DNA of 64,000 bases from Capsulimonadaceae bacterium (GCA_965215505.1 OZ244065.1:3648001-3712000), one strand, 5' to 3'; numbered from the stretch's first letter, positions 25,734 through 40,321 are shown. Notes: generated from the letters alone by a model not told the origin. Numbers and translations are program-made.

Positions 25734-26477
25734 ATGCCTCGAAAACTTATTGCCCCCCTCCTGGCGGCCTTCACCCTGGCCGCCGCGCCTGCCTTTGCCA
25801 CGACCAAGGGCCTGAACCAGATCGTCACGCCGGACGTCCAGCCGTTCGGCATCCTGTCGGTCAGCTTCCAGCAGCAGGACCCCAACATCGCCAACCGCTA
25901 CGAGGTCCAGGCGGAGATCGGCATCACCCGCCGCTTTGAGGTCGCCGTCTTCCAGGGCCACTCGCCGCCGGAGCAGGTCGCCAACGCCGAATACGCCGTC
26001 GTCCAGAACGGGCCGAACCAGCCGTACCTCTTGTCGGCCGGCTTCTTCAACTGGACGACCAAAGGGTCGGCCCCGCAGCCCTACGCCGAGGGCGGCTACT
26101 ACAAGGGCAACACCCAGCTCATGCTCGGCCTCGCCAGCGTCATCGTCCAGCACCCCGACGTGGCAGGCCTTGTCCAGAACAGCCACCAGGCGCAGGCCAT
26201 CCTCGGGTACGGCTACCGCGTCCACCCGCGCGTCCTGCTCCAGCTCGACTACCAGAGCGGCACGGCCAACTCCGCCACGGCGGGCCTGACCTACAGCATT
26301 ACGCCCCAGCTCCAGTTCAACCCCGCCGTCTACGTCTCCAACGCCGAGGGCCACAAGGTCTGGGGCTACGCCGTGCTGACCTGGAACGTGGACGTGTTCG
26401 CGCCCAAACCTGCCCAGCCGCCCGCCCCCGCCACCCTGCCCAAGTCGCAGGGCCAGCAGAACACGCCCGCCCCGTAG
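25734..26477 (+). CDS. Secreted, probable outer-membrane beta-barrel protein
   Basis: GAGGAG RBS; signal peptide AFA; alternating aromatic strands, ..VLTWN near the C-terminus. Confidence 0.65.
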   Translation: MPRKLIAPLLAAFTLAAAPAFATTKGLNQIVTPDVQPFGILSVSFQQQDPNIANRYEVQAEIGITRRFEVAVFQGHSPPEQVANAEYAVVQNGPNQPYLLSAGFFNWTTKGSAPQPYAEGGYYKGNTQLMLGLASVIVQHPDVAGLVQNSHQAQAILGYGYRVHPRVLLQLDYQSGTANSATAGLTYSITPQLQFNPAVYVSNAEGHKVWGYAVLTWNVDVFAPKPAQPPAPATLPKSQGQQNTPAP

Positions 26478-26606
26478 GGACGCGATTCATCGCGCCCTGT
26501 TCTCCTGTTGCCCCCTGTTCTCCTGTTGCCCCCTGTTCTCCTGTTGCCCCCTGTTCTCCTGCCGCGCCCTGTTCCCCTGCCGCGCCCTGTTCCCCTGCCG
26601 CGCCCT
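26474..26606 (+). repeat. GTAG-REP followed by 18-bp tandem repeat
   Basis: GTAGGGACGCGATTCATCGCGCCC then about 6 units of CCCTGTTCTCCTGTTGCC/CCCTGTTCCCCTGCCGCG. Confidence 0.8.
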
Positions 26607-26778: not shown

Positions 26779-27666
26779 ATGCGCTCCTTCTGTTCTCTCT
26801 CGTCCAAATCCGGCCCGTTTGCGGCATCGGTTGCTGCCGTTTTCGTGCTGACTGCTCCGGCACAGGCCCAAACCAACCTGTTCTCCGAAACCGTCAGCGT
26901 GGCGGCTGGAAACGCCTCGCAGAGAAGCACGGACCCGACTCAGCCCGCGATCAGCGCCTCCGGCAGCGAGAGCTTCCCTGGCGAGTCCGACTCCGGCCTG
27001 AGCCGGATCACCCAGATCGGGGTCTTCAACGGGAATGCCTCTGCGGATCTGTCCCCTCCCAGCATGTTCCCCGAGTCGCGCGACAGTGTCAACGGCACCT
27101 ATCAGGACATCTGGCAGCTCCGGTATGTGGGAGCCGACCCGCACCCAGGCCCCGCTCGGATTACCCTCGGGGAAGCCGTGAGCGTGGACCTGTCTAACTC
27201 CGGCTCCACACCCTCTTCCGTCGCCAGCAGCGACTTTTCCGGCAACTTCAACCTCTCGGATCAGGGGAATGCGTACCACGAGTACCTTTTCGACGGCCCA
27301 AACGGCACCAGTTCCGACACAGGCGGCATCACCTTGACCTTGCAGCCGGGGGAAGAGTTCGATGTCAGCTACCAGTGGATGGCGCAGGCCGAGGACCTCA
27401 TTGTCAACGGTGCGGTGCCTAGCGGTCCGCTCACGAGCCGTGTGGATTATAGCGGACTCGTGGGCTTCATCGCCCCGGCGGATTACGTCGTCTACAGTGT
27501 GGGACAAAGCACCGGCGGTGTCGGGAATCCCCTCGGCATCCCGCTCTCGTCTCTCCCACCGGTCCCGGAAGCCTCCACAACCGTCTCCTTCGGACTGCTG
27601 CTGGCCCTCGGCGCGGGCGGGCTGGTGGTCGCGGCGCGGCGCAGGAAGGGCGCCCCTTCCCTGTAG
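26779..27666 (+). CDS. PEP-CTERM surface protein
   Basis: Signal peptide (AQA); PVPEASTTVSFGLLLALG + TM + RRRK. Confidence 0.9.
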   Translation: MRSFCSLSSKSGPFAASVAAVFVLTAPAQAQTNLFSETVSVAAGNASQRSTDPTQPAISASGSESFPGESDSGLSRITQIGVFNGNASADLSPPSMFPESRDSVNGTYQDIWQLRYVGADPHPGPARITLGEAVSVDLSNSGSTPSSVASSDFSGNFNLSDQGNAYHEYLFDGPNGTSSDTGGITLTLQPGEEFDVSYQWMAQAEDLIVNGAVPSGPLTSRVDYSGLVGFIAPADYVVYSVGQSTGGVGNPLGIPLSSLPPVPEASTTVSFGLLLALGAGGLVVAARRRKGAPSL

Positions 27667-28028: not shown

Positions 28029-29810
28029 TCACCTGCGGGTGATCAGGACATCCAGGCCGGTGGTCTGACACTCATACCGCTCTGCGCGTCCCCAGCCGAC
28101 GACGAAATAGAGGCGGTCCCCCCGCACCACACGCACCTGGCGGGAGAGGATGAGTGGCCGGGACGGAGAAACGTCGCGGCTCGTCAGAGACACGCCGTTC
28201 AGAAAGAGGTGTGCGTCCGTCGCCGTCAGCCCGTTCACGTCAAGCCCGGAAAACTCCGCGTCGATCCGGTATCCTCCGGCCTCGGGGGCGGTCCAGCAGA
28301 CGGCCGCGTATTCCCCACGAGGGCCTGGATGCAGGGAAACCTGGTTAGGCTGCCAGGTCAGGCCGATCTGGCTGATGCGTCCGCCGCTCATGTTCTTTAG
28401 CACAGTCGGATCGGTCCATGCCGGATCGTGCCAGCAGACGAGACCGTTCGACCCCTGCCTGTGGATCTGGAACGGCCGGAACGTCTCCGGGATGGGCGTC
28501 GGCCCTGGGTCCATCGATCCGTAGGCCCACGCCCCGCTCGGGTTCTCGTAAATGGAGAAGTCCGCGACCAGGCCGTGGACCTCCTCGGGACCGCTCGCGT
28601 GGCGCAGAGAGCGGGTGAGCAGGAACCGCCGGTGGGGGGTCAGGACAGCGGGGGCCAGCAGCGCAAGGCCCAGGCCGCCCGCCAGCAGTCCCCAGGAGCG
28701 CGCCGGGCGGGCGTCGGGTGGGCGGGCCGACGAGGTCAGCCCGCCGAGCCGGCGGACGGCGTCGGCGAAGTCGCGTTCCGCGGCGAGGGCCAGCCCGCTG
28801 CGCCTTGCGAAGACCGTCAGCGCCGGCCCGGCGTCCTGGTCGGAGACGATCATCTCCCGCATGCGCTCCTGGGCGCAGCAGCGTACCTTCCGCTCCAGGT
28901 CCCCGACCGGCAGGCATTGCCAGCGTCCATCGTAGCGTCCATCGTCCGGTGCCCCTTCTGCGCCGAGCGCGAATGAGGCCGCCACGCCCTCGGCGGAGAG
29001 CGCCCTGGCCGGTCCGTGCCGCAGGAGGTATAGGCCCAGCGCCAGGGCGCCCGCCCCGGAGCCGCCCCGCAGGACGAACTCCCGCAGGAAGATTTCGTGT
29101 TCGGGCCGGACCGGCTCGATGCGAACGCTCACGTCAGGGGAGGGGCCGTCACTTGCCGCCACGAGCGACCGGACGGCCGCGGCAGCCCGGCGGAAGACGG
29201 CACCGAAGTCGGCGTCCAGGCAGCGGACCGTCAGCTGCTCTGGATGTGGGAACACCTGACCGCAGGCCGTCGGACACGCCTCCAGGACGAACTCGGCCAG
29301 CACTTGATCTGTTTCCTCGCCGTCCACGATCGCCGCCTCGGAGAGGATCAGAGGGAACCGGAAGCGGGCCGACCGTCGGCCCCTTTCCGTCCGGCCGCTC
29401 CCGAGACGCGGCGGCGTACTCAAATAGGCGGTCAGGCTCTGCCAGAAGGCGTCCGGCAGCCAGGGCCACGGGCCGGCGGTGCCGCAGCGCAGCTCGTCGG
29501 CGATCAGCAGGGCGTCCGCGCCGCGCGCCAGTGCGCCGGCGGCCGTGACCAGGGTCCGCAGCCAGAAGGCGAGCCAGACGGCGGTCTCGGGGCTTCCGCT
29601 CTCCGCCAGCGCTTCACCCGCCGGGCCGTCCAGCCAGGAGAGCCATCTGTCGAACGTCTCGGCCGGGGCTTTAGCCAGAACCGCGTTCCGGCACGCCGCC
29701 GGCATCCGCGGCGGAATTCGCTCCCGCCACTCCAGGACGCGCGTCAGGCGGTCCGGTTCGTTGGTCAGTTTCTCCGTGCTTGTGTATAGATCGTCCAGCG
29801 AACAGTTCAC
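28029..29810 (-). CDS. Membrane-anchored Lon-like (S16) protease-domain protein with C-terminal extracytoplasmic domain
   Basis: LRGGSGAGALAL..VAASFAL..LPVGDLERK resembles the Lon Ser-Lys dyad; no AAA motif; TM WGLLAGGLGLALLA; beta-rich C-domain. Confidence 0.65.
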   Translation of the reverse strand: MNCSLDDLYTSTEKLTNEPDRLTRVLEWRERIPPRMPAACRNAVLAKAPAETFDRWLSWLDGPAGEALAESGSPETAVWLAFWLRTLVTAAGALARGADALLIADELRCGTAGPWPWLPDAFWQSLTAYLSTPPRLGSGRTERGRRSARFRFPLILSEAAIVDGEETDQVLAEFVLEACPTACGQVFPHPEQLTVRCLDADFGAVFRRAAAAVRSLVAASDGPSPDVSVRIEPVRPEHEIFLREFVLRGGSGAGALALGLYLLRHGPARALSAEGVAASFALGAEGAPDDGRYDGRWQCLPVGDLERKVRCCAQERMREMIVSDQDAGPALTVFARRSGLALAAERDFADAVRRLGGLTSSARPPDARPARSWGLLAGGLGLALLAPAVLTPHRRFLLTRSLRHASGPEEVHGLVADFSIYENPSGAWAYGSMDPGPTPIPETFRPFQIHRQGSNGLVCWHDPAWTDPTVLKNMSGGRISQIGLTWQPNQVSLHPGPRGEYAAVCWTAPEAGGYRIDAEFSGLDVNGLTATDAHLFLNGVSLTSRDVSPSRPLILSRQVRVVRGDRLYFVVGWGRAERYECQTTGLDVLITRR

Positions 29811-29883
29811 GCGTGCCTCTCCGTGCAGGGAAGATCGAGCTAGGGAAGAGCGAGATCACTAGGGAGGATGCAGATCACGTCCG

Positions 29884-30621
29884 TCAGCCCGTCTCGTGAC
29901 CGTCCGGCGATGCCGGGCTGGCCGCCTCCGGCAGCAGTTCGGCCGCCAGCGCGCTCTGATCCGTCAGCGCGTGCGCGCGCTCGAGAGTTCCCAGGAGCGT
30001 CAGGACGCCGACGCCGATGTTCTTGTGGAGCAGCGGCTGCGGCGCGGCGGGGTCGGTGATCGTCAGGTGTACCAGCCGCCCGGCGAACTCGGCCGCCTCG
30101 GCCGGCGAGACCGTCTCGATCTTGGCGTGGTACTCCCGCCCATGACGCTGTAAGAGCGTGCCCGTCAAACGGCCGTCGGAGCCGGCCACGGGGAACGTCA
30201 CCGTCCGGGTCTCGTCGCCGGACGCGAACGCCCCGGCCCGTGGGGCGAGCGCCCCGAGCGGCATCCGCAGCGCCTCGCGCAGTCCCTCCAGCCAGCCGCC
30301 AGCTTCCTGAGCTTCCTGCGGCGGCCGCCCCGCTTCGGGGCTTTCCCGAGCGCCGTCCCGGCGCTCCGCCCGCACCCGCCCGGCCAGCCGGTAGGTCTGC
30401 CGCCACCGGCCGTACTCCGATCGGCAGTACGCGCAGGCCGTGACGTGGGCCTGAATGCCCCCGGCCCGTGGGTGCCCTGACCCCTGCTCGATCCAGTCGA
30501 GCATTTCGACGGGGTCGGGGCATTCGGGCGTACATGTGCCCCCCTCCCCGCCGAGGGCCTCCGCGATGGCTGGGCCAAGCGGTTCCCGGTCGTCCCCGCG
30601 CGCCCGCGTGTGTTTCTGCAT
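29884..30621 (-). CDS. Soluble zinc-binding (zf-HC2/ZAS) anti-sigma factor
   Basis: ECPD..HVTACAYC (Hx3Cx2C); no TM; directly after the ECF gene. Confidence 0.8.
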   Translation of the reverse strand: MQKHTRARGDDREPLGPAIAEALGGEGGTCTPECPDPVEMLDWIEQGSGHPRAGGIQAHVTACAYCRSEYGRWRQTYRLAGRVRAERRDGARESPEAGRPPQEAQEAGGWLEGLREALRMPLGALAPRAGAFASGDETRTVTFPVAGSDGRLTGTLLQRHGREYHAKIETVSPAEAAEFAGRLVHLTITDPAAPQPLLHKNIGVGVLTLLGTLERAHALTDQSALAAELLPEAASPASPDGHETG

Positions 30622-30696
30622 TGCAGCCTTTCCGAATTACAGCCTTCCCGATGCGCTCGGCGATCCTCTCGCGCGGGGGACAGTCATCCTAAAACT

Positions 30697-30726
30697 AAGA
30701 CGGACGCAATGTTGCGATTCGTTACA
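30697..30726 (-). promoter_or_regulatory. ECF-type promoter overlapping the sigma stop codon
   Basis: TGTAACG-N18-GTCTT; same architecture as 31394-31423. Confidence 0.6.
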
Positions 30727-31336
30727 GCCCCGCCCCTTCCGCCGGCCCGAGACACCGGGCGGCGGCCTCTCGGACGGCGGGCAGTGCGCGGGACTTGCGG
30801 ACCCGCACCGCGCCCGGCTCCATGCCGAGCTGCTTACCGATCTCCTCCGCCGTCATCTCCAGGGTGTAGGCGCAGTAGAGGATGAAGCAAGTCTCGGGCG
30901 TGAGCGTCTCCCGCAGGACGGCCCAGAAGCCGTCGATCCCCGCCTGCTCCAGTGCCCCCGCCTCCGGGCTGGGGCGCGCGGCCACCCCGCCCCCGCACTC
31001 GAGCTCGTCCAGGCTGACGGCGGCGGGGCCGGCGCGCAGGCGTGCCCGCAGCAGGTCGTCGCAGGCATGGCGGGCGATGACGGCCAGCCACGGGCGGATC
31101 TTGCCTGCGTCCTGGAGCGTGTGGAGGCGGCAACTGGCCCGCAGGAGTGCCTCCTGGGCGGCGTCGGCGGCCTCGTCGGGGTCGAGGAAGCGGCGGCAAA
31201 GGGCCTCGACGTAGCCCCGATGCTCCTCAAGCACGCGGCCGATGACCGCCCGCCTCTGGTCTGCCTGCCTTTCCCCGCCGGCCCGGTCCTTCCCCGAATG
31301 CCCTTGGTCCTGATGCGCCATGTCTGCCCCGTACAC
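30722..31336 (-). CDS. ECF RNA polymerase sigma factor
   Basis: EAADAAQEALL, WLAVIARH..D (region 2); EEIGKQLGMEPGAVRVRKSRA (region 4). Confidence 0.9.
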   Translation of the reverse strand: MYGADMAHQDQGHSGKDRAGGERQADQRRAVIGRVLEEHRGYVEALCRRFLDPDEAADAAQEALLRASCRLHTLQDAGKIRPWLAVIARHACDDLLRARLRAGPAAVSLDELECGGGVAARPSPEAGALEQAGIDGFWAVLRETLTPETCFILYCAYTLEMTAEEIGKQLGMEPGAVRVRKSRALPAVREAAARCLGPAEGAGL

Positions 31337-31423: not shown

Positions 31424-31522
31424 CCACTGTGACGATGGATCTCATAAGACGACGCATCTCATCGCCCGCCCCGAAGCATGATCGTTAGCTTAGATCAATC
31501 ACCTGATCCAAAGGAGTTTCTT

Positions 31523-33097
31523 ATGCGCCAGGAAAAGTCGGAAGCGACATATGCCGAGGCCGTTGCGCGGCTAGTCCGTCAGGATGTGAGCCGCCGCGAG
31601 TTCCTGCGCGCCCTCTCGGGCGGCGCGCTTGTCTTCGCCGCCGGTGGCCTGCTCGCCGGCTGCGGCGGGGGTGGAGGTGGGGGAAACTCCTCGGGCACAG
31701 GGCAGGCGGTTAGCACTCGCGTCATGTCCGCTACAGTCAATACTCAAGAGATCGGCGGCAGTGGGCTTGTAATCCAGTCGGGTCTTCAGGCTGCATCCCC
31801 ACTATCTGCCTCTGGTGCATTCACAACAAAAACCTCGCAGCAAGGAGCGCAACTGCTGAGTGTTGCTGATGGGGCTGGGAAAATTCGGGGGCTTATGATC
31901 GCGGTCCCTGCCGGAACGGCTAACTCGGCACGCCCAAAGGCAACCGGCTCGGCTGATCCAAGAGCGACTGATTCTACGCAGATTGACGCGGCATCCACTG
32001 CCTTTGCCCTCGTCTTCCTCACCCCCGGTATTCTATCCACGTCTCCTGGGGAGGCCGCAACACGGTTAGCAGAGATCGGGTCCCTGTCTTCCTTCGTCGC
32101 ACTCGTGACGTTCCTTCAGCAGAACCTGTCGGGTACCGCACTTTCAGATCTGGCCCAGAACACGATCCTGGATGGTCTTAAGGCAAACTGCATCAATGAC
32201 TGGGTTAACAGCCAGTTACATGCCTCTGTCATCAGTCCTACGAAGCCACACACCGCTGCCACACAAGCTCATTTCGACGCGACCTATGGCCCCGGCTTCG
32301 GCTCAGGCAATACATCCCCCGTTATTCTGACCAACGGCGCCTGGCGGTTTGTCAGCGTCGTTCGACAGGAATTCGATCCGGCCAGTGTGTTGCTAATCCC
32401 GCCGGACACGTCTAAGGCTACCCTTTCGCACGGTGACAGTACCCTGGGCGGTGCGACCGCCCTGACGTGGGGATCGGTCTTTACTGCCACCGCTGGCGCA
32501 CCCGGCAAAGATACGGGACAGGCTGATCTGTCAAACCCGCATGTCGCCTCCCTAAAATATTGGGCATACGGTCCAGGCCGACAGTCGCTCTCCGATCCCG
32601 ATGCCCCCAGCACACAGTACTTCGAAACCAATAGAGTGGGCTTTTACACCTTTTGGTATTACGTTATGTCTCCGTTCTTAGACATTGTCGTAGGTGGATT
32701 GGGGATTTTTGCCAAGGGCGTTACCTTGCTAAAGGCTACTGCCGATGGAACAGGGGTCGTCTGGGGAGTCGCCGGAAACACCCTGAATTCTGCGGGTCTA
32801 CTTTCAGCCTTGAGCGAGGGCAACCGTGGTGACGCAGTGGCAGCAGGAGTGGACCTGGGGCTTGGCTGTCTCGGGCTGCTCGACACCATCCTCGGCGTCC
32901 TTGTCGAGGCCGAGGCGCTTGGCGCAGTCGGACTTGTTGCCTCGGAGGTTATTGGGGCTATCGCATTGTTTGCGGGAGTCCTCGCTGCGGCGTTTAGTGC
33001 CGCGAACCTTTCTATAGCCGTCGCGCAATGGCTGCTCTTACCCCAGGTCGCCAGTGTCGAATTGCCGTTAAGCAAAGGCACCATTACGGTCGGCTGA
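31523..33097 (+). CDS. Tat-exported lipoprotein with long hydrophobic C-terminal region
   Basis: AAGGAG RBS; SRREFL + LLAGC lipobox; Gly/Ala/Leu-rich C-terminal helices. Confidence 0.8.
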   Translation: MRQEKSEATYAEAVARLVRQDVSRREFLRALSGGALVFAAGGLLAGCGGGGGGGNSSGTGQAVSTRVMSATVNTQEIGGSGLVIQSGLQAASPLSASGAFTTKTSQQGAQLLSVADGAGKIRGLMIAVPAGTANSARPKATGSADPRATDSTQIDAASTAFALVFLTPGILSTSPGEAATRLAEIGSLSSFVALVTFLQQNLSGTALSDLAQNTILDGLKANCINDWVNSQLHASVISPTKPHTAATQAHFDATYGPGFGSGNTSPVILTNGAWRFVSVVRQEFDPASVLLIPPDTSKATLSHGDSTLGGATALTWGSVFTATAGAPGKDTGQADLSNPHVASLKYWAYGPGRQSLSDPDAPSTQYFETNRVGFYTFWYYVMSPFLDIVVGGLGIFAKGVTLLKATADGTGVVWGVAGNTLNSAGLLSALSEGNRGDAVAAGVDLGLGCLGLLDTILGVLVEAEALGAVGLVASEVIGAIALFAGVLAAAFSAANLSIAVAQWLLLPQVASVELPLSKGTITVG

Positions 33098-33131: not shown

Positions 33132-34559
33132 ATGACCACACGAAATCAAGCAAGCAATATCAGTCGGCGCGCGTTTCTGCGCGCCCTCTCCGGCGGCGCG
33201 TTCGTCCTTGCCTCCGGCAGCCTGCTCGCCGGCTGTGGCGGTGCGGGCAACAGCTCCGGCTCCACGGGGAAGGCGGGGGCCGCCCCGAGCGGCACGACAG
33301 CCCCCGGCGGCACGACAGCCCCGCCGGCCATCACAGGCTCGGCCCGCGCCACCGTCCACATCACCTGGCCGAAGCCTAAAACCGCCGGCTCCGTCCGATC
33401 CCGCCTGATCCCGGCCGCCTCCAATGCCATTAAGATCGACATCAAGAATGGCGCGACGCCGGTCGCCAGCGCAGTCATCGCCACGCCCAGCCCATCCCAC
33501 ACCTTCGACGCCCTACCCGTCGGCAGCCTCACCGTCATCTGCACGGCCTACCCCGACGCCACCGCTGCGGGCGTCGCCCAGGCCACCGGCGTGGGCACCC
33601 TAGTGACGCAGGCCGGGCAGACGGCGACGCTGACGGTGACGATGGACAGCACCGTAGACCACCTTTCCATCGCGCCGGTCACCGCGCCGGTCAGCGTCGG
33701 GGCCACCACGCAGCTTGCCGTCACCGCCTACGATGCCTCCGGGGCCATCGTCCTAGTTTCGCCATCCAAGTTCAAGTGGAGTTCGGACACGCCCTCCGTG
33801 GCGACGGTGGACGGCAGCGGCGTTGTAACGGGAATAGCGAATGGGACCGCCGGCATCATCGTCACGGACACGGATACCGACGCCGAATCGCAGAAGACCA
33901 GCCCCCCGGTCATCATCGCGGTGACTGACGCGAACAGCCTGGCAGGGACCTGGGTCGCCTGGTACGGCGACAACTCCGTTGGCAACCCACCCGGCGGTAT
34001 CCAGCTGTCCTTGTCCGAAGACAAGGACGGCAACGTCAGTGGTTCCGTTCTGTTCAATCACGCCATCGAGTCCCTCGAAGTGTCCGGAAAGCGCACCGGT
34101 TCGTCGTTCCAATTTCAGACACTTCCTCACGCTTCCGGCCCCGGCCAGGTTACCACATTCACCGGCGCGGTCTCCGCCGGAGGGCTTAGCGCCAGCGGCA
34201 CCGTGGCAGGCAGCGGAGGCGCCCTTGGCAATCAAACCGTGCCGTTGAACATGGTCCGCGATGGTCAGCCCGTCTTAGTCGTCCTGCAATGGCAGGGGGG
34301 CGGAGCCAGCGGCACTGTCACTCTGGCGGCCTCTGACGGAACCCCAGTGGCAGGCAGCGGAAGCATTACGGATGGCAAAGGGGAACTGACAACGTCCCTG
34401 CCGTCGGGCGATTATCGGGTCATCCTGAATTACACGTCTGACCGGGATTTTGGGTTTTCGACGAATGCCAGCGGCACGGTCGCTTTGACGCCGGACGACG
34501 GATACTTTCGGGGTTCGGCTGGTTCGGGCACGGACAGCATTGACATGAGGGTCGATTAA
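33132..34559 (+). CDS. Tat-exported lipoprotein with Big_2 Ig-like domain
   Basis: SRRAFL + LLAGC; WSSDTPSVATVDGSGVVTGIANGTA. Confidence 0.85.
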   Translation: MTTRNQASNISRRAFLRALSGGAFVLASGSLLAGCGGAGNSSGSTGKAGAAPSGTTAPGGTTAPPAITGSARATVHITWPKPKTAGSVRSRLIPAASNAIKIDIKNGATPVASAVIATPSPSHTFDALPVGSLTVICTAYPDATAAGVAQATGVGTLVTQAGQTATLTVTMDSTVDHLSIAPVTAPVSVGATTQLAVTAYDASGAIVLVSPSKFKWSSDTPSVATVDGSGVVTGIANGTAGIIVTDTDTDAESQKTSPPVIIAVTDANSLAGTWVAWYGDNSVGNPPGGIQLSLSEDKDGNVSGSVLFNHAIESLEVSGKRTGSSFQFQTLPHASGPGQVTTFTGAVSAGGLSASGTVAGSGGALGNQTVPLNMVRDGQPVLVVLQWQGGGASGTVTLAASDGTPVAGSGSITDGKGELTTSLPSGDYRVILNYTSDRDFGFSTNASGTVALTPDDGYFRGSAGSGTDSIDMRVD

Positions 34560-37012: not shown

Positions 37013-37975
37013 CTAGTCCGCCTCCGCCCGGCGGCACAGGTCCCGCGCGGCCTCGGGCCAGGCCGGGAACTCGAAGGTGAAGCCTGCTTCGAGGAGGCGG
37101 CGCGGGACGACGTAGCGGCTCTTCAGGATCAGCTCCGTCTCGGTCCCCAAAGCCCGCGCGCTGATCTCCAGCATCCAGGCCGTCGCGGGTAGGCCCGCCG
37201 ACACATTGGCCGCGTCCCGCAGGGCGCGCAGGAAGGCGGCGTTCGGGAGAGGGTTCGGGGCGGCGAGGATGACCGGCCCGGCCAGAGTGTCGCCTTTCTG
37301 CCCGTCGGCGTCTATCAGGAAGCGGACGGCGCGCACGAAGTCGTCGCCGTGCATCCAGGAGACGAACTGCCGCCCGTCCCCTTCCGTCCCGCCCAGCCCG
37401 CGCCGGACCAGGCCCAGCAGGGTGTCGAAAGCCCCGCCCTTGTCCGCGCTCATCACGATGGAGGTCCGCAGGGCCGTCTTGCGCGTATGGGGCGTCGCGG
37501 CCCGCTCGAACTCCGCCTCCCACTGCCGGGCGACCTCCAGGCTGAACCGCCAGGTGTCCGGAAGATTCGGCTCCGCGCCGCCGAGGACGCCCGAAACGTC
37601 GTCGTTGGGCGCGTCATAACGATGGCTGTAGATCGTCGCCGTGCCCGCCTGGAGCCAGACGCGCGGCGGGCTGGGTGCCTCCGCGATGGCCGCCCCGACG
37701 GCGCGCGTTGACAGGACGCGCGAGTCTATGATGACCCTGCGGTTCTCGGGCGTGTACCGGCAGTTGACGCTGCGCCCGGCCAGGTTGATCACCGCGTCCG
37801 CCCCGTCCACCTCGCTCGCCCATTCGCCCGCCGTCTCGGCGTCCCAGGCCGCGACCCGCCAGGGAGCCGGCCGGGGCGTCCGGCTCAGGACGACCACTTC
37901 GTGCCCCTCGGCGTGGAACGCGCGGGCCAAAAGCGTCCCGGTCTGCCCGGTGCCGCCGGGGATGACGATCTTCAT
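37013..37975 (-). CDS. TIGR01777/YfcH-like NAD-dependent epimerase
   Basis: IPGGTGQTG, INLAGRSV, GRQFVSWMH, PRRLLEAGFTF. Confidence 0.9.
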   Translation of the reverse strand: MKIVIPGGTGQTGTLLARAFHAEGHEVVVLSRTPRPAPWRVAAWDAETAGEWASEVDGADAVINLAGRSVNCRYTPENRRVIIDSRVLSTRAVGAAIAEAPSPPRVWLQAGTATIYSHRYDAPNDDVSGVLGGAEPNLPDTWRFSLEVARQWEAEFERAATPHTRKTALRTSIVMSADKGGAFDTLLGLVRRGLGGTEGDGRQFVSWMHGDDFVRAVRFLIDADGQKGDTLAGPVILAAPNPLPNAAFLRALRDAANVSAGLPATAWMLEISARALGTETELILKSRYVVPRRLLEAGFTFEFPAWPEAARDLCRRAEAD

Positions 37976-38068
37976 GGTGTGTTTCTCCTGGTCTTACCAA
38001 GGTTGGAGGATCGGTGGCCGCTAAAGATCGCCCCCGTCCTGCCGACAATGGCATGTGGAATGCCTTCA

Positions 38069-40321
38069 ATGAAACGCGACACACGCCGGCGGGTCCGCGC
38101 GCTCGTCCTGCTCCGCCGTCCGGCCCGCTGGGCGCGGTCCGACCGGGAGACCTGCCGCCGCCTGCTGCTGATCGCGGCCTCGACCGGCCTCTTCCTCCTG
38201 TGCCTGATTCTTAAGCCGGGCGGCCTCAAGGTCACCGACGAGGTGAGCAGCCTCGCCGACATCGCGCTCGGCCTGCTGGGCGCGTGGTGGTGCTTCGCCG
38301 CCGCCCTGTCCCGAAGCCCGGACGGTGCCGGGCGGCCCGGACTCGCGCGGCGGGTGACGCTCTCGCTGCTCGGCCTGGGCGTGTTCGCCTCCGTGCTGGG
38401 CGACGCCGTCTGGTCCTACAACGAGACCCTGCTGCGCCGCGTGATGCCGTTCCCCTCCTGGGCCGACGCCTGCTACCTGTCCCAGTACCCGCTGCTGCTG
38501 CTGGGCATCCTGCGCCTGCCGACGCGGCGGCTGCCGCCGGCCCTGCGCTGGCGGGTCGTCCTGGACAGCCTCATCACGTTGACGGCCCTGGTCACCCTCT
38601 CCTGGTACTTCGTCCTGGGGCCGACCGTCCTGGGCGGGACGGAGTCCGGGGTCAACAAGCTCCTGGCGGCGGCCTTCCCCGTGGGCGACCTGGTCCTGCT
38701 GGTTTCGCTGCTCCTGGTCATGGCGCAGAGCCGCGACAGCGTCCCCCGGCCCGCCGTGGCGGCTCTCTCCGTCGGCCTGCTGTGCATCATCACGGCGGAC
38801 ACCACTTTCCTCTACCAGATGCTGAAGGGCACCTACACTCCGGGCGGCCTGGTGGGCGTGTGCGGGCCGCTGGCCTATCTGACCCTCGGGCTGGGGGCCT
38901 GGCTCTCGCGCCGGGCGCGGGCCGGGGCGGGCGACGAGCGCCCCGCCGTGCCGCTGCTCTGGCGGTCGCTGCTGCCCTACGCGCTCGTGCCCGCCGTCGG
39001 CGTCCTCTCGGTCTATACCCGGATGCACCGGGGCGGCGGGATGCACCGGGGCGACGAGGCCCTGGAACTCGGCGTCTTCGTCGGGGCGGCCCTGCTGGTC
39101 GCCCTGGTGGTGACGCGGCAGGCCGTCGCCATCAGCCGCCTGATCGCAGACCTCCGGGAGCGCATCGCCGAGTCGGAGGCGGCGCGGCACCACCTGACCG
39201 CCCTGGCCGAGCAGGATGGACTGACCGGCCTGCTGAACCACCGCGTCTTCCACAAGCGGCTGGAGGAGGAGGCGGGCCGGGCGCAAAGCTCGGGCCGGCC
39301 CCTGACGGTCGCGCTCGTGGACCTGGACAACTTCAAGTTCTTCAACGACGCCTACGGGCACCTCGCCGGGGACGACGTGCTGCGGCAGGTCGCCGCCGCC
39401 CTGCTGTCCTGCTGCCGGGCGGGGGACACGCTGGCCCGGTTCGGCGGCGACGAGTTCGCCCTGCTGCTGCCGGGCGCGGGGCGGGAGGAGGCGGGGCGGC
39501 TGGCCGCTCGCCTCCAGGCCCGCCTGGACGGGCTGGCCTACCGCCCGCCGGACCACGACGTCGCCATCCCGCTGCGGCTCTCGGTCGGGACCGCCGTCTT
39601 CCCCGAGGAGGGCGCGGGCCGCATGGAGGCGCTGGCCCTCGCCGACGCCCGCCTGTACCGGGCCAAGACGGGCGGGGGCGACGACGACACGGCCCAGCGC
39701 CTGCGCGCCGACCTGTCCCTCTCCGTCGAGGGCTTCTCCATGCTGGACGCCCTGGTGGCCGCCGTGGACAATAAGGACCGCTACACCGGCAAGCACTCCG
39801 AGGACGTCCTGACCTTCAGCCTCCAGATCGCCGGGGCATTAGGCATGGACGAGGAGGCGCGGCACACGGTCGCGGTCGCCGCCCTGCTGCACGACGTCGG
39901 CAAGATCGGCGTCCCCGACAAGATCCTCCGCAAGCCGGGCCGGCTGACGGGCGAGGAGAACACCGCCATCCGGCACCACCCGACCATGGGGGCCATCCTC
40001 GTCGGGGCCGTGCCCGGCTTCGAGGACGTGCTGGAAGCCGTCCGCCACCACCACGAGCGGTGGGACGGCGCGGGCTACCCGTTCGGCCTGCGCGGTGAGG
40101 AGACGCCGCTGATCGCCCGCCTGATGGCCGTCGCCGACGCCTACAGCGCGATGACGACCGACCGCCCCTACCGCAAAGGCATGGCCGAGGAGAGCGCCCT
40201 GGCCGAGATCGAGCGCGGTGCCGGCTCTCAGTTTGACCCCGCTTTGGCCCGGCTCTTCGTCGCCGTGCGGCGTCCGGAAGTGCGAATGGAAGAGGCCGGC
40301 GTTCTGCTGAGAGCGGCCTGA
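38069..40321 (+). CDS. Membrane GGDEF + HD-GYP c-di-GMP enzyme
   Basis: Multiple TMs; DGLTGLLN, ARFGGDEF; LLHDVGK, HHERWDGAGYP. Confidence 0.93.
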   Translation: MKRDTRRRVRALVLLRRPARWARSDRETCRRLLLIAASTGLFLLCLILKPGGLKVTDEVSSLADIALGLLGAWWCFAAALSRSPDGAGRPGLARRVTLSLLGLGVFASVLGDAVWSYNETLLRRVMPFPSWADACYLSQYPLLLLGILRLPTRRLPPALRWRVVLDSLITLTALVTLSWYFVLGPTVLGGTESGVNKLLAAAFPVGDLVLLVSLLLVMAQSRDSVPRPAVAALSVGLLCIITADTTFLYQMLKGTYTPGGLVGVCGPLAYLTLGLGAWLSRRARAGAGDERPAVPLLWRSLLPYALVPAVGVLSVYTRMHRGGGMHRGDEALELGVFVGAALLVALVVTRQAVAISRLIADLRERIAESEAARHHLTALAEQDGLTGLLNHRVFHKRLEEEAGRAQSSGRPLTVALVDLDNFKFFNDAYGHLAGDDVLRQVAAALLSCCRAGDTLARFGGDEFALLLPGAGREEAGRLAARLQARLDGLAYRPPDHDVAIPLRLSVGTAVFPEEGAGRMEALALADARLYRAKTGGGDDDTAQRLRADLSLSVEGFSMLDALVAAVDNKDRYTGKHSEDVLTFSLQIAGALGMDEEARHTVAVAALLHDVGKIGVPDKILRKPGRLTGEENTAIRHHPTMGAILVGAVPGFEDVLEAVRHHHERWDGAGYPFGLRGEETPLIARLMAVADAYSAMTTDRPYRKGMAEESALAEIERGAGSQFDPALARLFVAVRRPEVRMEEAGVLLRAA

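Follow-up and report, generated by a model that had tools for sequence, protein, structure and literature searches.

Three adjacent genes in the genome of a Capsulimonadaceae bacterium encode an ECF sigma factor, a soluble HxxxCxxC protein and a 593-aa protein with a predicted Lon-type fold. They were identified in a stretch of 64,000 nucleotides (GCA_965215505.1 OZ244065.1:3648001-3712000), referred to here as the window, from the first letter of which all positions are counted. The reading proposed here, to which we would give roughly even credence, is that these genes constitute a CRISPR-independent analogue of CalpL/CalpT/CalpS, with proteolytic release of the sigma factor and with exchangeable sensors. 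All three are co-oriented on the minus strand, the strand to which every feature described below belongs, in the order ECF-type sigma factor (gene 1, 30722..31336, 204 aa, with an alternative ATG at 31321), soluble zinc-type (ZAS-like) anti-sigma candidate (gene 2, 29884..30621, 245 aa) and Lon-fold protein (gene 3, 28029..29810). The intergenic gaps are approximately 100 nt (genes 1 and 2) and 73 nt (genes 2 and 3), and RBS-like purine-rich sequences are situated ahead of the starts of genes 2 and 3. An earlier note on this DNA had described the co-oriented triad and its motifs, and that observation is confirmed; its interpretation, in which a receptor-protease cleaves the anti-sigma, is partly supported. 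A sigma-70-like promoter match, a match to the consensus only, was seen upstream of the sigma gene (31399-31370).

The assignment of gene 1 follows from domain searches. It matched Pfam Sigma70_r2 (36.6 bits; cut-off 24), Pfam Sigma70_r4 (26.3 bits; cut-off 24.1) and the TIGR02937 sigma70-ECF model (48.6 bits; cut-off 42.9), and no region 3 match was obtained in Pfam or NCBIfam. Gene 1 thus has regions 2 and 4 only, together with a match to the ECF superfamily model, the combination that defines ECF (group 4) sigma factors.

In the structure model of gene 3 (pLDDT 86.6, pTM 0.87), residues 146-360 (28731..29375) have the fold of the Lon proteolytic domain, as judged by VIA, Foldseek and profile alignments. 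VIA superposed this domain on E. coli Lon (1rr9_A) with a Z of 20.0 and an rmsd of 2.5 Å over 174 residues, a strong match that bears out the Lon-like domain expected in the earlier note, and 16 Lon-fold entries, comprising Lon proteases and the Lon-like domains of ComM, BrxL and RadA, were found at Z ≥14.8. Foldseek returned 129 matches at E≤1e-3 with Lon P domains on top (3wu6_A, E 3.0e-6, target TM-score 0.66). Sequence identity to Lon is approximately 12-14%. A search of PDB sequences with a gene 3 profile matched BsLonB (8dvh_A, E 0.0038) as well as 1xhk_A, and an hhalign comparison with the two Lon proteins of the same genome gave a probability of 88.9% (E 2.4e-6). The Pfam Lon_C model (PF05362), to which the true Lon genes of the genome score 297-309 bits, gave no match to gene 3 (E≤1). 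Since gene 3 had no match in Pfam, NCBIfam or PADLOC, it is taken to contain no AAA module, in agreement with the earlier note; in its place, residues 1-135 (29406..29810) were modelled as a helical domain of 8 helices, mostly with pLDDT >80, for which the fold matches were generic helical ones only (Z ≤6.6). This N-domain is conserved across all 15 aligned homologues, with W79, L94, A104, F122 and L130 invariant. Canonical Lon (LonA, LonB; MEROPS S16) therefore has the proteolytic fold and the Ser and Lys columns in common with gene 3, but differs in possessing an AAA+ module and the Lon N-domain, where gene 3 has its other helical N-terminal domain.

The Ser and Lys that had been proposed as a Lon dyad were both located in gene 3, 57 residues apart: S251 in GGSGAGALAL (codon 29058-29060) and K308 in LPVGDLERK (codon 28887-28889). 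In the PDB-sequence profile search and in hhalign, S251 lies in the column of the Ser of GPSAG and K308 in that of the last Lys of GG(L/V)xxK, i.e. those of the Lon catalytic Ser and Lys. S251, K308, S279 and E239 are invariant in 15/15 sequences (30-40% identity). The two motifs go beyond chance, because S251 and K308 show no variation among the 15 sequences and coincide with the Lon catalytic columns in two profile alignments. S251-K308 is the predicted catalytic dyad, and its invariance is as expected for an active site. Lon-like folds are also found in non-proteolytic proteins, and RadA, ComM and BrxL score at Z 16.8-18.1 (RadA 5lkq_B 17.2, ComM 8rxd_F 18.1, BrxL 8emc_A 17.6), near true Lon; these scores and the missing Lon_C match would suit a non-catalytic scaffold, with gene 3 tethering or sequestering the complex of anti-sigma and sigma factor at the membrane until it is released by a change in conformation rather than by proteolysis. 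The presence of Ser and Lys in the exact catalytic columns, invariant along with S279 and E239, argues for a protease instead, and we consider the scaffold very unlikely.

The helical N-domain and the Lon fold of gene 3 are together termed the N-module. Sequence searches identify it as a rare cassette part, newly recognized here, whose fusion partners elsewhere are AAA_35 STAND NTPases, either with TIR or lacking it. AAA_35 was present in 8 of the 10 representative N-module homologues and in all 7 locus-encoded homologues scanned, and was absent from gene 3 (Pfam). In most relatives the AAA_35 STAND NTPase, sometimes with TIR, is followed by an AAA_35-WD40 gene; no co-oriented ORF is located below 28029, and the AAA_35-WD40 partner is not found downstream of gene 3.

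Two surveys yielded 19 other N-module loci (6 and 13), from which L016, L103, L105 and L106, with <500 nt upstream, were excluded, leaving 15 testable loci. An HxxxCxxC ORF (206-320 aa) was situated directly upstream of the N-module in 13 of the 15, and both this ORF and a sigma gene were present in 11 of the 15, a tally for which L110 is cut by a contig end and L015 was not decided; L102 and L114 have the N-module with neither a sigma nor an anti-sigma gene. The HxxxCxxC proteins encoded ahead of the N-module in these loci align over their full length, with shared linker and beta-domain motifs, and their homology to gene 2 likewise spans its entire length. Gene 2 was the sole match in the window's genome to the L013 anti-sigma (E 4.2e-9). 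Pairwise identities among the three proteins correlate (r 0.84-0.94, 6 loci), which adds little, as such a correlation is expected for any linked genes. The L013 sigma, used as query, found 8 other sigma genes in the window's genome, gene 1 not among them, and BLASTP of gene 1 against the L107 sigma gave an E of 0.001 over just 35 residues. By these sequence comparisons, gene 1 and the sigmas of the other cassettes are not orthologues. Conservation of the triad, for which the earlier note had suggested a neighbourhood survey, stands for the pairing of anti-sigma and module, with a sigma gene in most loci, but not for the identity of the sigma. That note had named a missing Lon-fold match, a Ser and Lys that are not juxtaposed and a triad not conserved among homologues as grounds on which its idea would fall; on the sequence and model evidence, the idea survives as regards Lon fold, dyad alignment and gene association. 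The pairing of a candidate inhibitor with a predicted protease in distant relatives suggests a little-known form of gene switching through cleavage of the inhibitor.

Gene 2 carries the zinc motif H59-x3-C63-x2-C66 (30424..30447), the three ligands of which are invariant in 12/12 aligned anti-sigmas. The candidate for a fourth ligand, C34 (30520-30522), is invariant in 3 close sequences, and in 10 more distant anti-sigmas its column is occupied by His (8 sequences) or Cys (2 sequences); C34, H59, C63 and C66 are all unchanged in the 2 close relatives of gene 2. HxxxCxxC with an upstream Cys or His ligand is a mark of ZAS anti-sigma factors, and gene 2 bears it. The highest 19-residue Kyte-Doolittle mean of gene 2 is 1.1, so the protein has no TM segment, and the description of it in the earlier note as a soluble Hx3Cx2C protein is upheld. 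Searches of Pfam and NCBIfam (E≤1) returned 0 families, with no curated anti-sigma or zf-HC2 model matched. The structure model is mediocre (pLDDT 69.1), with helices at 37-92, and the weak fold matches to RslA (3hug_B, Z 5.2), RskA (4nqw_B, Z 5.1) and ChrR (Foldseek, E 2.1e-3) score too low to tell true relatives from chance resemblance. The zinc motif and the gene order suggest that gene 2 may bind and inhibit its cognate sigma. Like the soluble ZAS proteins ChrR, RslA and RsrA, gene 2 has HxxxCxxC and an upstream fourth ligand, is soluble and directly follows an ECF sigma gene; it differs from them in that its family accompanies a gene for a Lon-fold module and in its C-terminal domain, which resembles TRAF/MATH (a weak match) rather than cupin.

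This C-terminal domain, at approximately residues 136-236 (29914..30216), is modelled as a beta-sandwich with 7 strands at 138-229 (10-residue block means of 61-90 for residues 131-230) and is weakly TRAF/MATH/Siah-like (VIA Z 7.9; Foldseek TRAF6 E 5.7e-3). The motifs FPV, QRxGxEY and VLLGT are conserved in it across the anti-sigma family, and it is the candidate site at which the protease would dock. The helical N-part is joined to the beta domain by the Ala-rich linker LAPRAGAFASG (residues 125-135, 30217..30249), the candidate site named in the earlier note, and this linker falls within the linker consensus of the family, SLAPLxPxxGAxA. The model is of low to moderate confidence in this region, with block means of 52-68 for residues 111-140. 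By analogy with CalpT, this linker may be the cleavage site.

The analogy derives from the CalpL study (bioRxiv 10.1101/2024.05.08.593097), according to which CalpL runs from an N-domain through a Lon domain to a sensor, the C-domain of CalpT binds the N-domain of CalpL, and CalpT is cut in an Ala-rich LAAA by a neighbouring subunit. The triad resembles that system in its set of three genes, in which an ECF-like sigma gene adjoins one for a soluble anti-sigma and one for a Lon-fold Ser-Lys protein that is independent of ATP (here a predicted protease). Gene 3 has the same order of N-domain, Lon domain and candidate sensor, and CalpL (7qda_A) aligned to its model at Z 12.8 (model residues 9-361, chain residues 1-310). 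In both anti-sigmas, a sigma-binding N-part (predicted in the case of gene 2) is connected through an Ala-rich linker to a small C-domain. CalpL has a cA4-binding SAVED sensor, whereas gene 3 has a secreted-type domain preceded by a hydrophobic segment, with no cyclic-nucleotide input; no SAVED domain was detected in it (Pfam, PADLOC), as the earlier note had anticipated. CalpT combines a MazF-like N-part with DUF2080, whereas the N-part of gene 2 is of the helical HxxxCxxC zinc type, DUF2080 had no Pfam match in its C-domain (E≤1), and CalpT was not among the fold matches listed for gene 2, all of which were weak (Z ≤7.9). CalpL/T/S belongs to type III CRISPR, and no cas genes were found with Pfam among 10 proteins flanking the triad. 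In structure, the Lon domain of gene 3 resembles canonical Lon (Z 20.0) more closely than it does CalpL (Z 12.8).

In the mechanism that we propose, which would follow that of CalpL/CalpT/CalpS with other components, the ECF sigma would be held by the helical zinc-type N-part of the soluble anti-sigma, as motif and gene order suggest. The beta-sandwich of the anti-sigma would dock on the cytoplasmic N-module, i.e. the helical N-domain and the Lon fold with its Ser251-Lys308 dyad and no ATPase; conserved gene pairing and a weak complex prediction point to such docking. A sensor part would bring protease modules together, such that one module cuts the anti-sigma at LAPRAGAFASG, much as CalpT is cut in trans at LAAA. 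The cut would separate the sigma-binding part from its anchor, leading to its loss and to release of the sigma. The sensor itself would be exchangeable, being in most relatives an AAA_35 STAND NTPase, of which TIR is sometimes a part, and here the segment with a secreted-type domain, so that the input for the window's protein and its two close relatives would be an extracytoplasmic cue.

The prediction of a complex between N-module and anti-sigma gave a median ipSAE of 0.58 (runs 0.58, 0.71 and 0.21), against 0.00 for the best of 3 controls, with contacts agreeing to at least 57% and a partner pLDDT of at least 63. Of 80 solved complexes, 58 attained the mark applied, as did 2 of 110 mismatched pairs, yet both of those mismatches, and just 7 of the 80 solved complexes, scored ≤0.60. 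The protease and anti-sigma contact implied by the earlier note is thus favoured over the controls, but in a weak band and with one run at 0.21.

Soluble ZAS proteins such as RsrA respond to redox or thiol stress, and the Ser-Lys VP4 proteases of birnaviruses process themselves. The Lon-fold module could accordingly be active with the anti-sigma not its substrate, processing itself or cutting the sigma or an unlinked protein, while the anti-sigma senses redox or thiol conditions on its own. Self-cleaving VP4 proteases do appear in the fold list of gene 3 (Z 12.0-12.3), and the anti-sigma retains the full C/H-H-C-C ligand set. TIR adjoins the module in relatives, so the module is not necessarily the sole output there, and L102 and L114 have the module with no anti-sigma. 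We nevertheless regard this alternative as unlikely, given that the anti-sigma family accompanies the module in 13 of the 15 loci, that it conserves an extra C-domain and linker for which a plain redox switch has no need, and that the complex prediction, weak as it is, exceeds its controls. Cleavage of the anti-sigma by the module remains the preferred reading.

With regard to the input, the N-terminus of gene 3 is not hydrophobic, which agrees with the absence of a signal peptide reported previously. A single hydrophobic stretch, WGLLAGGLGLALLAPAVL, within residues 372-392 (28635..28697), has the highest 19-residue Kyte-Doolittle mean (1.75) and is the probable signal-anchor TM segment by which gene 3 is probably anchored in the membrane. 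It is followed, at approximately residues 405-592 (28035..28598), by a beta-rich C-terminal domain, the candidate sensor. That domain is widespread, 2235 representatives having been matched at E≤1e-3, mostly via the C-domain part. In relatives a signal peptide precedes it and a C-terminal sorting anchor follows, or it occurs in tandem in giant Calx-beta proteins. A signal peptide was present in 8/8 relatives' loci inspected, and the segment of gene 3, some 20 residues upstream of the domain's start, occupies the place of that signal peptide. Judged by these homologues, the C-domain of gene 3 is probably outside the cell.

The single TM segment claimed in the earlier note thus stands as a hydrophobic stretch, but its topology is left uncertain by arginines: the flank ahead of the segment has 3 Arg and 1 Asp and the flank after it 4 Arg, a distribution contrary to the positive-inside rule, and an Arg lies inside the segment in P0002 and P0003. 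Such features, the lack of any Pfam or NCBIfam model, family name or ligand for the C-domain, and the use of cytoplasmic STAND NTPases by the other module homologues examined would be in keeping with an intracellular cue, the segment being a mere anchor or not spanning the membrane and the C-domain serving localization or oligomerization, or lying in the cytoplasm; the link between protease and anti-sigma would then be real and the outside sensor mistaken. The signal peptides of the C-domain homologues, the position of the segment where those peptides lie and the occurrence of the domain in giant proteins that also have Calx-beta and sorting signals speak for an external location, and the intracellular reading is somewhat doubtful to us. 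The external sensor of the earlier note accordingly finds support in the secreted-type C-domain but not in the relatives, with their AAA_35 proteins with or without TIR. A role for gene 3 as receptor for an outside ligand would be a feature of one small clade (P0001-P0003), the membrane architecture being confined to one cluster of 3 proteins with at least 85% identity.

The narrowness of that clade, the missing AAA_35-WD40 partner gene and a sigma that differs from the cassette sigmas could also be read as signs of a chance fusion remnant, in which a piece of a STAND cassette, minus its NTPase, has joined the gene of a secreted protein and does no signalling, leaving the sigma and anti-sigma to act alone. 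This is highly improbable, as the 593-aa frame is intact, with 85-86% identity in two other organisms and every catalytic and structural invariant kept, the anti-sigma retains its module-associated C-domain, and the stretch is present near-identically (0.93-1.00 of sampled words) in runs from 3 studies.

In regulated intramembrane proteolysis, site-1 and site-2 proteases (DegS/RseP) act on membrane anti-sigmas. The logic proposed for the window, from envelope cue to anti-sigma proteolysis to release of an ECF sigma, would be common to both. Gene 2, however, has no TM segment, no S2P-type enzyme is encoded in the triad locus, and a single receptor-protease would act from the cytoplasmic side. 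A further parallel is provided by the EACC2-caspase neighbourhoods, which, as described by Kaur et al. (2021, eLife), consist of STAND or otherwise sensor-variable proteins, a constant protease and a nearby ECF sigma, with a proposed transcriptional output. The terms 'Lon', 'anti-sigma' and 'ZAS' each have 0 occurrences in that paper, with neither a ZAS anti-sigma nor a Lon fold mentioned. Those systems resemble the window's cassette in placing a constant protease (predicted here) on sensor-variable or STAND proteins near an ECF sigma gene, and differ in that their protease is caspase-like, whereas that of the cassette has a Lon fold.

The three ORFs of the triad lie close together, all on the minus strand: gene 1 at 30722-31336 (204 aa), gene 2 at 29884-30621 (245 aa) and gene 3 at 28029-29810 (593 aa), separated by gaps of approximately 100 nt and then 73 nt. 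GGAAAGG-like and GGAGAGG-like sequences are situated 5-6 nt ahead of the starts of genes 2 and 3, respectively. By consensus matching only, a σ70-like promoter match was found just upstream of gene 1, and no terminator-like site was found on the minus strand between the triad genes. The G+C contents of the three genes range from 0.70 to 0.73, and those of the flanks are slightly lower. Gene 1 exceeds the cut-offs for Sigma70_r2, Sigma70_r4 and TIGR02937, and no region 3 match was found in it by Pfam or NCBIfam. As judged from its sequence, gene 1 is an ECF sigma factor.

A search of 1.84 billion representative proteins with gene 3 returned 2235 proteins at E≤1e-3. Among the best 150 of these, only P0002, a close relative of the window protein (86%), was related over the full length; 11 covered residues 1-370 alone, and the remaining 138 matched the C-terminal part (residues ~400-592), which was often repeated within giant proteins. 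Gene 3 is composed of two unrelated halves. No PDB sequence was matched by gene 3 at E≤10, and PADLOC assigned none of the three triad proteins to a family.

The N-terminal half, referred to here as the module, was aligned in 15 sequences, which are 30-40% identical to the window protein, apart from two close relatives at 86%. There are 19 invariant columns, including S251 of GxSGAG, K308, S279 and E239. An AlphaFold model of residues 1-370 (pLDDT 86.6, pTM 0.87) consists of a helical domain (1-131) and an alpha/beta domain (147-359). Foldseek returned 129 PDB matches for this model at E≤1e-3 with Lon proteolytic domains on top (3wu6_A, E 3.0e-6; 1rr9_A, target TM-score 0.71). In VIA, a fold search of 48,161 chains that is independent of Foldseek, the best match was the catalytic domain of Escherichia coli Lon (Z 20.0, rmsd 2.5 Å, 174 residues), followed at Z 15.9-19.0 by LonA and LonB proteases and by the mitochondrial and archaeal enzymes. 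Lon-like domains without proteolytic function, those of ComM, BrxL and RadA, gave Z 14.8-18.1, CalpL (7qda_A) gave Z 12.8 across model residues 9-361, and birnavirus VP4 proteases gave Z 12.0-12.3; unrelated helical proteins reached at most 6.6.

Profile comparisons gave the same picture. The module profile detected Bacillus subtilis LonB (E 0.0038) and Methanocaldococcus jannaschii Lon (E 0.27) among PDB sequences, and in both alignments the serine of GxSGAG falls on the serine of G(P/D)SA and the invariant lysine on that of GGVxxK. The P domains of the two genuine Lon proteins encoded in the window genome gave an identical Ser/Lys pairing in hhalign (88.9% probability, E 2.4e-6), and the module HMM reaches that genome's own Lon at E 9.6e-4. 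Pfam Lon_C had no match in gene 3. Since the fold searches and the profile and hhalign alignments agree, the Lon fold and the catalytic columns are confirmed. The Lon-like protease of the earlier note is thereby borne out at the level of fold, and its proposed Ser-Lys dyad, S251 with K308, occupies the invariant Lon catalytic columns and is thus a predicted dyad.

The module is usually found as part of a larger protein. When ten homologs of the N-terminal half were scanned with Pfam, a fusion to AAA_35 was seen in eight; TIR_2 was present in two (in P0013 alongside AAA_35, in P0025 by itself), and one was fused to an AAA_16/NACHT-like NTPase and TPR. These fusions place the N-terminal half, in general, at the N-terminus of STAND NTPases, in the effector position.

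The module is rare: of 401 genomes sampled from across the phylum, 6 had it, one of them being the window's own. In a species-representative collection, 80 TIR/AAA_35 loci were all matched through their TIR/AAA_35 part, and none contained the module by HMM. No relative was found when genome contigs were searched with gene 3 as a single-protein query, and a profile search of a word-indexed database with alignment A1 returned only five already-known proteins. A metagenome scan yielded 13 further module loci. In all, 19 loci were available besides that of the window; four (L016, L103, L105 and L106) were dropped for having less than 500 nt upstream, leaving 15.

It is apparent from these 15 loci that the module gene has a regular neighbour. 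An HxxxCxxC ORF of 206-320 aa lies directly upstream of it in 13, often overlapping its start, and a sigma gene, recognized by our own HMM or by Pfam Sigma70_r4_2, lies upstream of that ORF in 11. The sigma call is ambiguous in one further locus (L015), and in another (L110) the upstream sequence ends at the contig end. The other two loci, L102 and L114, which are mutually related, have neither a sigma nor an HxxxCxxC gene. A conserved ORF of ~125 aa is found instead, directly upstream of the module-TIR-AAA_35 gene (L102:4500-4900 and L114:1560-1960). Some loci are not independent (L108, L109 and L110 hardly differ from one another, and L112 resembles L113); after allowing for kinship, approximately ten distinct lineages have the anti-sigma-module pair and one does not. 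For six loci, the three proteins give correlated pairwise identities (r 0.84-0.94), but this was given no weight because linked genes share their history. The triad was assumed to be contiguous in P0002 and P0003, the two close relatives, from matching identity levels.

The sigma factor behaves differently. With the sigma of L013 as query, eight other sigma genes of the window genome were matched and the window sigma was not. The window sigma and that of L107 align over only 35 residues of region 4 (BLASTP E 0.001); the closest paralog of the window sigma within its own genome gives E 5.4e-12. Orthology of the whole cassette, sigma included, was therefore rejected, neither the L013 nor the L107 sigma being an orthologous match. 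The window sigma is, then, a different ECF factor from those of the other cassettes, or a strongly diverged one. Conservation of the triad, the main test to which the earlier proposal was open, thus holds for gene order but not for the identity of the sigma, and since the sigmas of the other cassettes do not match that of the window, the conserved partnership is that of anti-sigma and module.

Gene 2 had no match at E≤1 in Pfam or NCBIfam. Its zinc motif is H59-x3-C63-x2-C66, with C34 positioned 25 residues upstream, and all four residues are invariant in two close relatives (alignment identities of 83% and 86%). The protein is soluble, as had been stated before, because its most hydrophobic 19-residue window scores just 1.1; classical regulated intramembrane proteolysis was rejected, there being no TM segment in this anti-sigma. 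A model built with 12 homologs (pLDDT 69.1) shows helices at 37-92, a low-confidence linker and a seven-strand beta domain at 138-229. Weak VIA matches were obtained for the helical part to the anti-sigma domains of RslA (Z 5.2) and RskA (Z 5.1), and for the beta domain to Siah/TRAF/MATH-like sandwiches (Z ≤7.9); Foldseek gave ChrR (E 2.1e-3) and TRAF6 (E 5.7e-3). A CalpT-like fold was set aside, as CalpT was absent from the results of both fold searches, an absence that is not decisive.

The proteins encoded upstream of the module in other loci are homologous to the window anti-sigma over its whole length, at 14-28% identity. With the L013 anti-sigma as query, the sole match in the window genome was the window anti-sigma (E 4.2e-9). 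H59, C63, C66 and G211 are invariant in the family alignment, and the beta domains have the motifs FPV, QRxGxEY, VLLGT and LLP in common. The family linker consensus, SLAPLxPxxGAxA, coincides exactly with LGALAPRAGAFASG of the window protein, so that the Ala-rich linker singled out earlier as a candidate cleavage site is located in a motif conserved family-wide. Gene 2 is read, not on fold matches alone, as an anti-sigma of the zinc type that has an additional beta-sandwich at its C-terminus.

Prediction of a complex between the module (15-row alignment) and the anti-sigma (three rows) was graded as weak support. The median ipSAE was 0.58 (runs of 0.58, 0.71 and 0.21) and the best of three controls 0.00, with contact agreement of at least 57% and partner pLDDT of at least 63. 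Of 80 solved complexes, 58 reach the mark applied, as do 2 of 110 mismatched pairs; a score of 0.60 or below goes with only 7 of the 80 and with both mismatched pairs that passed. The protease-anti-sigma part of the complex envisaged in the earlier note thus scores above its controls, but within the weak band and with one discordant run, and the prediction is a small push toward binding, not proof. A functional tie between gene 3 and the anti-sigma is regarded as likely.

Membrane proteolysis cascades and, more recently, the CRISPR-linked CalpL/T/S system are known examples of sigma factor release by cutting of an inhibitor. In the portion of the source available, a preprint on CCaCalpL (bioRxiv 10.1101/2024.05.08.593097), CalpL is described as an N-domain, a Lon domain and SAVED, with the dyad S154/K195 (S152/K193 in the Sulfurihydrogenibium homolog), and CalpT as a sigma-binding domain followed by a small C-domain, the part that attaches to the N-domain of CalpL. 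According to the same portion, CalpT is cut within an Ala-rich LAAA by a neighbouring subunit after sensor-driven oligomerization, and sigma release from CalpT requires further processing. As far as that text describes CalpL/T/S, the window system resembles it in both proteins: the protease has a helical N-domain, a Lon fold and a swappable sensor, and the anti-sigma a putative sigma-binding N-terminal part, which a conserved Ala-rich linker joins to a small C-domain. It differs in lacking both SAVED and a MazF-like/DUF2080 anti-sigma, and gene 3 differs from canonical Lon in having neither an AAA+ module nor a Lon_C match. It was placed in neither group, since defining features of each were absent.

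From the layout shared with CalpL/T/S, cleavage of the linker in trans is proposed. Sensor-driven assembly of module-bearing proteins would be followed by cutting of the anti-sigma linker in trans, and loss of the anti-sigma would then leave the sigma active. That the system works in this manner, like CalpL/T/S, is an argument by analogy to which about even weight may be given.

The sensor would differ between versions. In the STAND versions the module gene encodes AAA_35, with or without TIR, in all seven scanned, and the next gene encodes AAA_35 with a WD40 beta-propeller in both of those scanned (L104:7546-10824 and L110:2951-5125), which suggests a two-protein STAND pair of WD40 sensor and Lon-fold effector. 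A similar AAA_35-like N-terminus is encoded after the module gene in L013:1-405 and L017:3665-4048.

The C-terminal half of gene 3 (the C-domain) has no Pfam or NCBIfam model and no named Atlas cluster; the 30 nearest Atlas clusters are all unnamed, and Pfam recognized only flanking domains in ten homologs. NCBIfam likewise gave no families for the secreted homologs of three relatives, for the 295-aa protein encoded next to gene 3 or for the C-terminal 273 residues of gene 3. Among 40 related genomes, the C-domain was the only part of gene 3 found, in 11, with a second copy in the window's genome. That copy, outside the window at G000:C1:3250835-3251371, lies in a 298-aa open frame (31% identity, E 4.6e-17). 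In all eight relatives' loci inspected, the domain is preceded by a signal peptide and followed by a hydrophobic C-terminal anchor with an Arg/Lys cluster at its end, which by motif we take to be PEP-CTERM-like, NCBIfam having no confirming model. The idea that the C-domain is this lineage's usual external domain of an anti-sigma was rejected, as all eight loci encode a small secreted protein and have no adjoining sigma gene.

Residues 372-392 are the sole strongly hydrophobic stretch of gene 3 (KD 1.75), and the N-terminus has no signal. The segment lies ~20 residues ahead of the secreted-type domain, the position of the signal peptide in the homologs. The natural reading is a predicted signal-anchor that leaves the module on the inner side of the membrane and the C-domain on the outer side. 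Against it, four arginines follow the segment versus a net charge of +2 before it, and the hydrophobic segments of P0002 and P0003 contain an arginine. Activation of the window system by an extracytoplasmic cue is accordingly entertained as a possibility, with some doubt.

These data suggest that the CalpL-like design of Lon-fold protease, tethered anti-sigma and ECF sigma is commoner and more modular, with NLR-like STAND sensors or, here, a domain predicted to be surface-exposed. Tentatively, and at somewhat less than even weight, we propose a so far undescribed modular receptor-protease family in which a constant module, made up of a helical docking domain and an ATP-independent Lon-fold Ser-Lys protease, is coupled to a two-domain zinc anti-sigma of its own, and a single cytoplasmic cut turns very different inputs (NLR-like sensing by AAA_35/TIR/WD40 STAND proteins in most members, or an extracytoplasmic cue in the window) into ECF sigma activation. 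If true, such a family would be a sister of CalpL/T/S that does not depend on CRISPR and would offer a one-enzyme route in place of regulated intramembrane proteolysis; it would be a compact ATP-independent device by which a cue, external or internal, reaches transcription. Bacterial STAND immunity would, in some systems, be tied to a transcriptional rather than a lethal output, and a function would be provided for a zinc anti-sigma family and a widespread secreted domain, both without a curated model. CalpL/T/S apart, a full-text literature search of a limited collection found no published account in which a Lon-fold module is combined with both a ZAS anti-sigma and an ECF sigma. The nearest printed ideas, in the portions of the sources available, are ECF sigma genes adjoining caspase-type conflict systems (Kaur et al. 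2021) and cyanobacterial sigma factors fused to NB-ARC, AAA_35 or WD40 (PMC11119718).

No cas or recognizable defence genes were found among ten flanking proteins scanned with Pfam; these include an Nramp transporter, secreted or lipoprotein-like proteins (one with Big_2) and a GGDEF-HD protein. The last (37901-40321, plus strand, 806 aa, GGDEF with an HD-GYP-type HD_5 domain) is encoded ~6.5 kb upstream of the sigma gene; it resembles a standard c-di-GMP signalling protein, and nothing evident connects it with the triad. Convergent with gene 3, the 295-aa protein at 26779-27666 (plus strand) had no curated model match; it has a C-terminal hydrophobic anchor and Arg/Lys cluster (VPEASTTVSFGLLL...RRRKG) of the same kind as in the secreted homologs of the C-domain. 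An 18-bp tandem repeat (26491-26606, 6.4 copies, 93% matches) lies between its gene and that at 25734-26477. Divergent from the sigma gene is an adjacent pair on the plus strand, 31478-33097 and 33132-34559, the second encoding the Big_2 domain. Their near-identical N-termini resemble twin-arginine lipoprotein signals (SRR.FLRALSGGA...AGCGG), and both genes are candidate targets of the window sigma.
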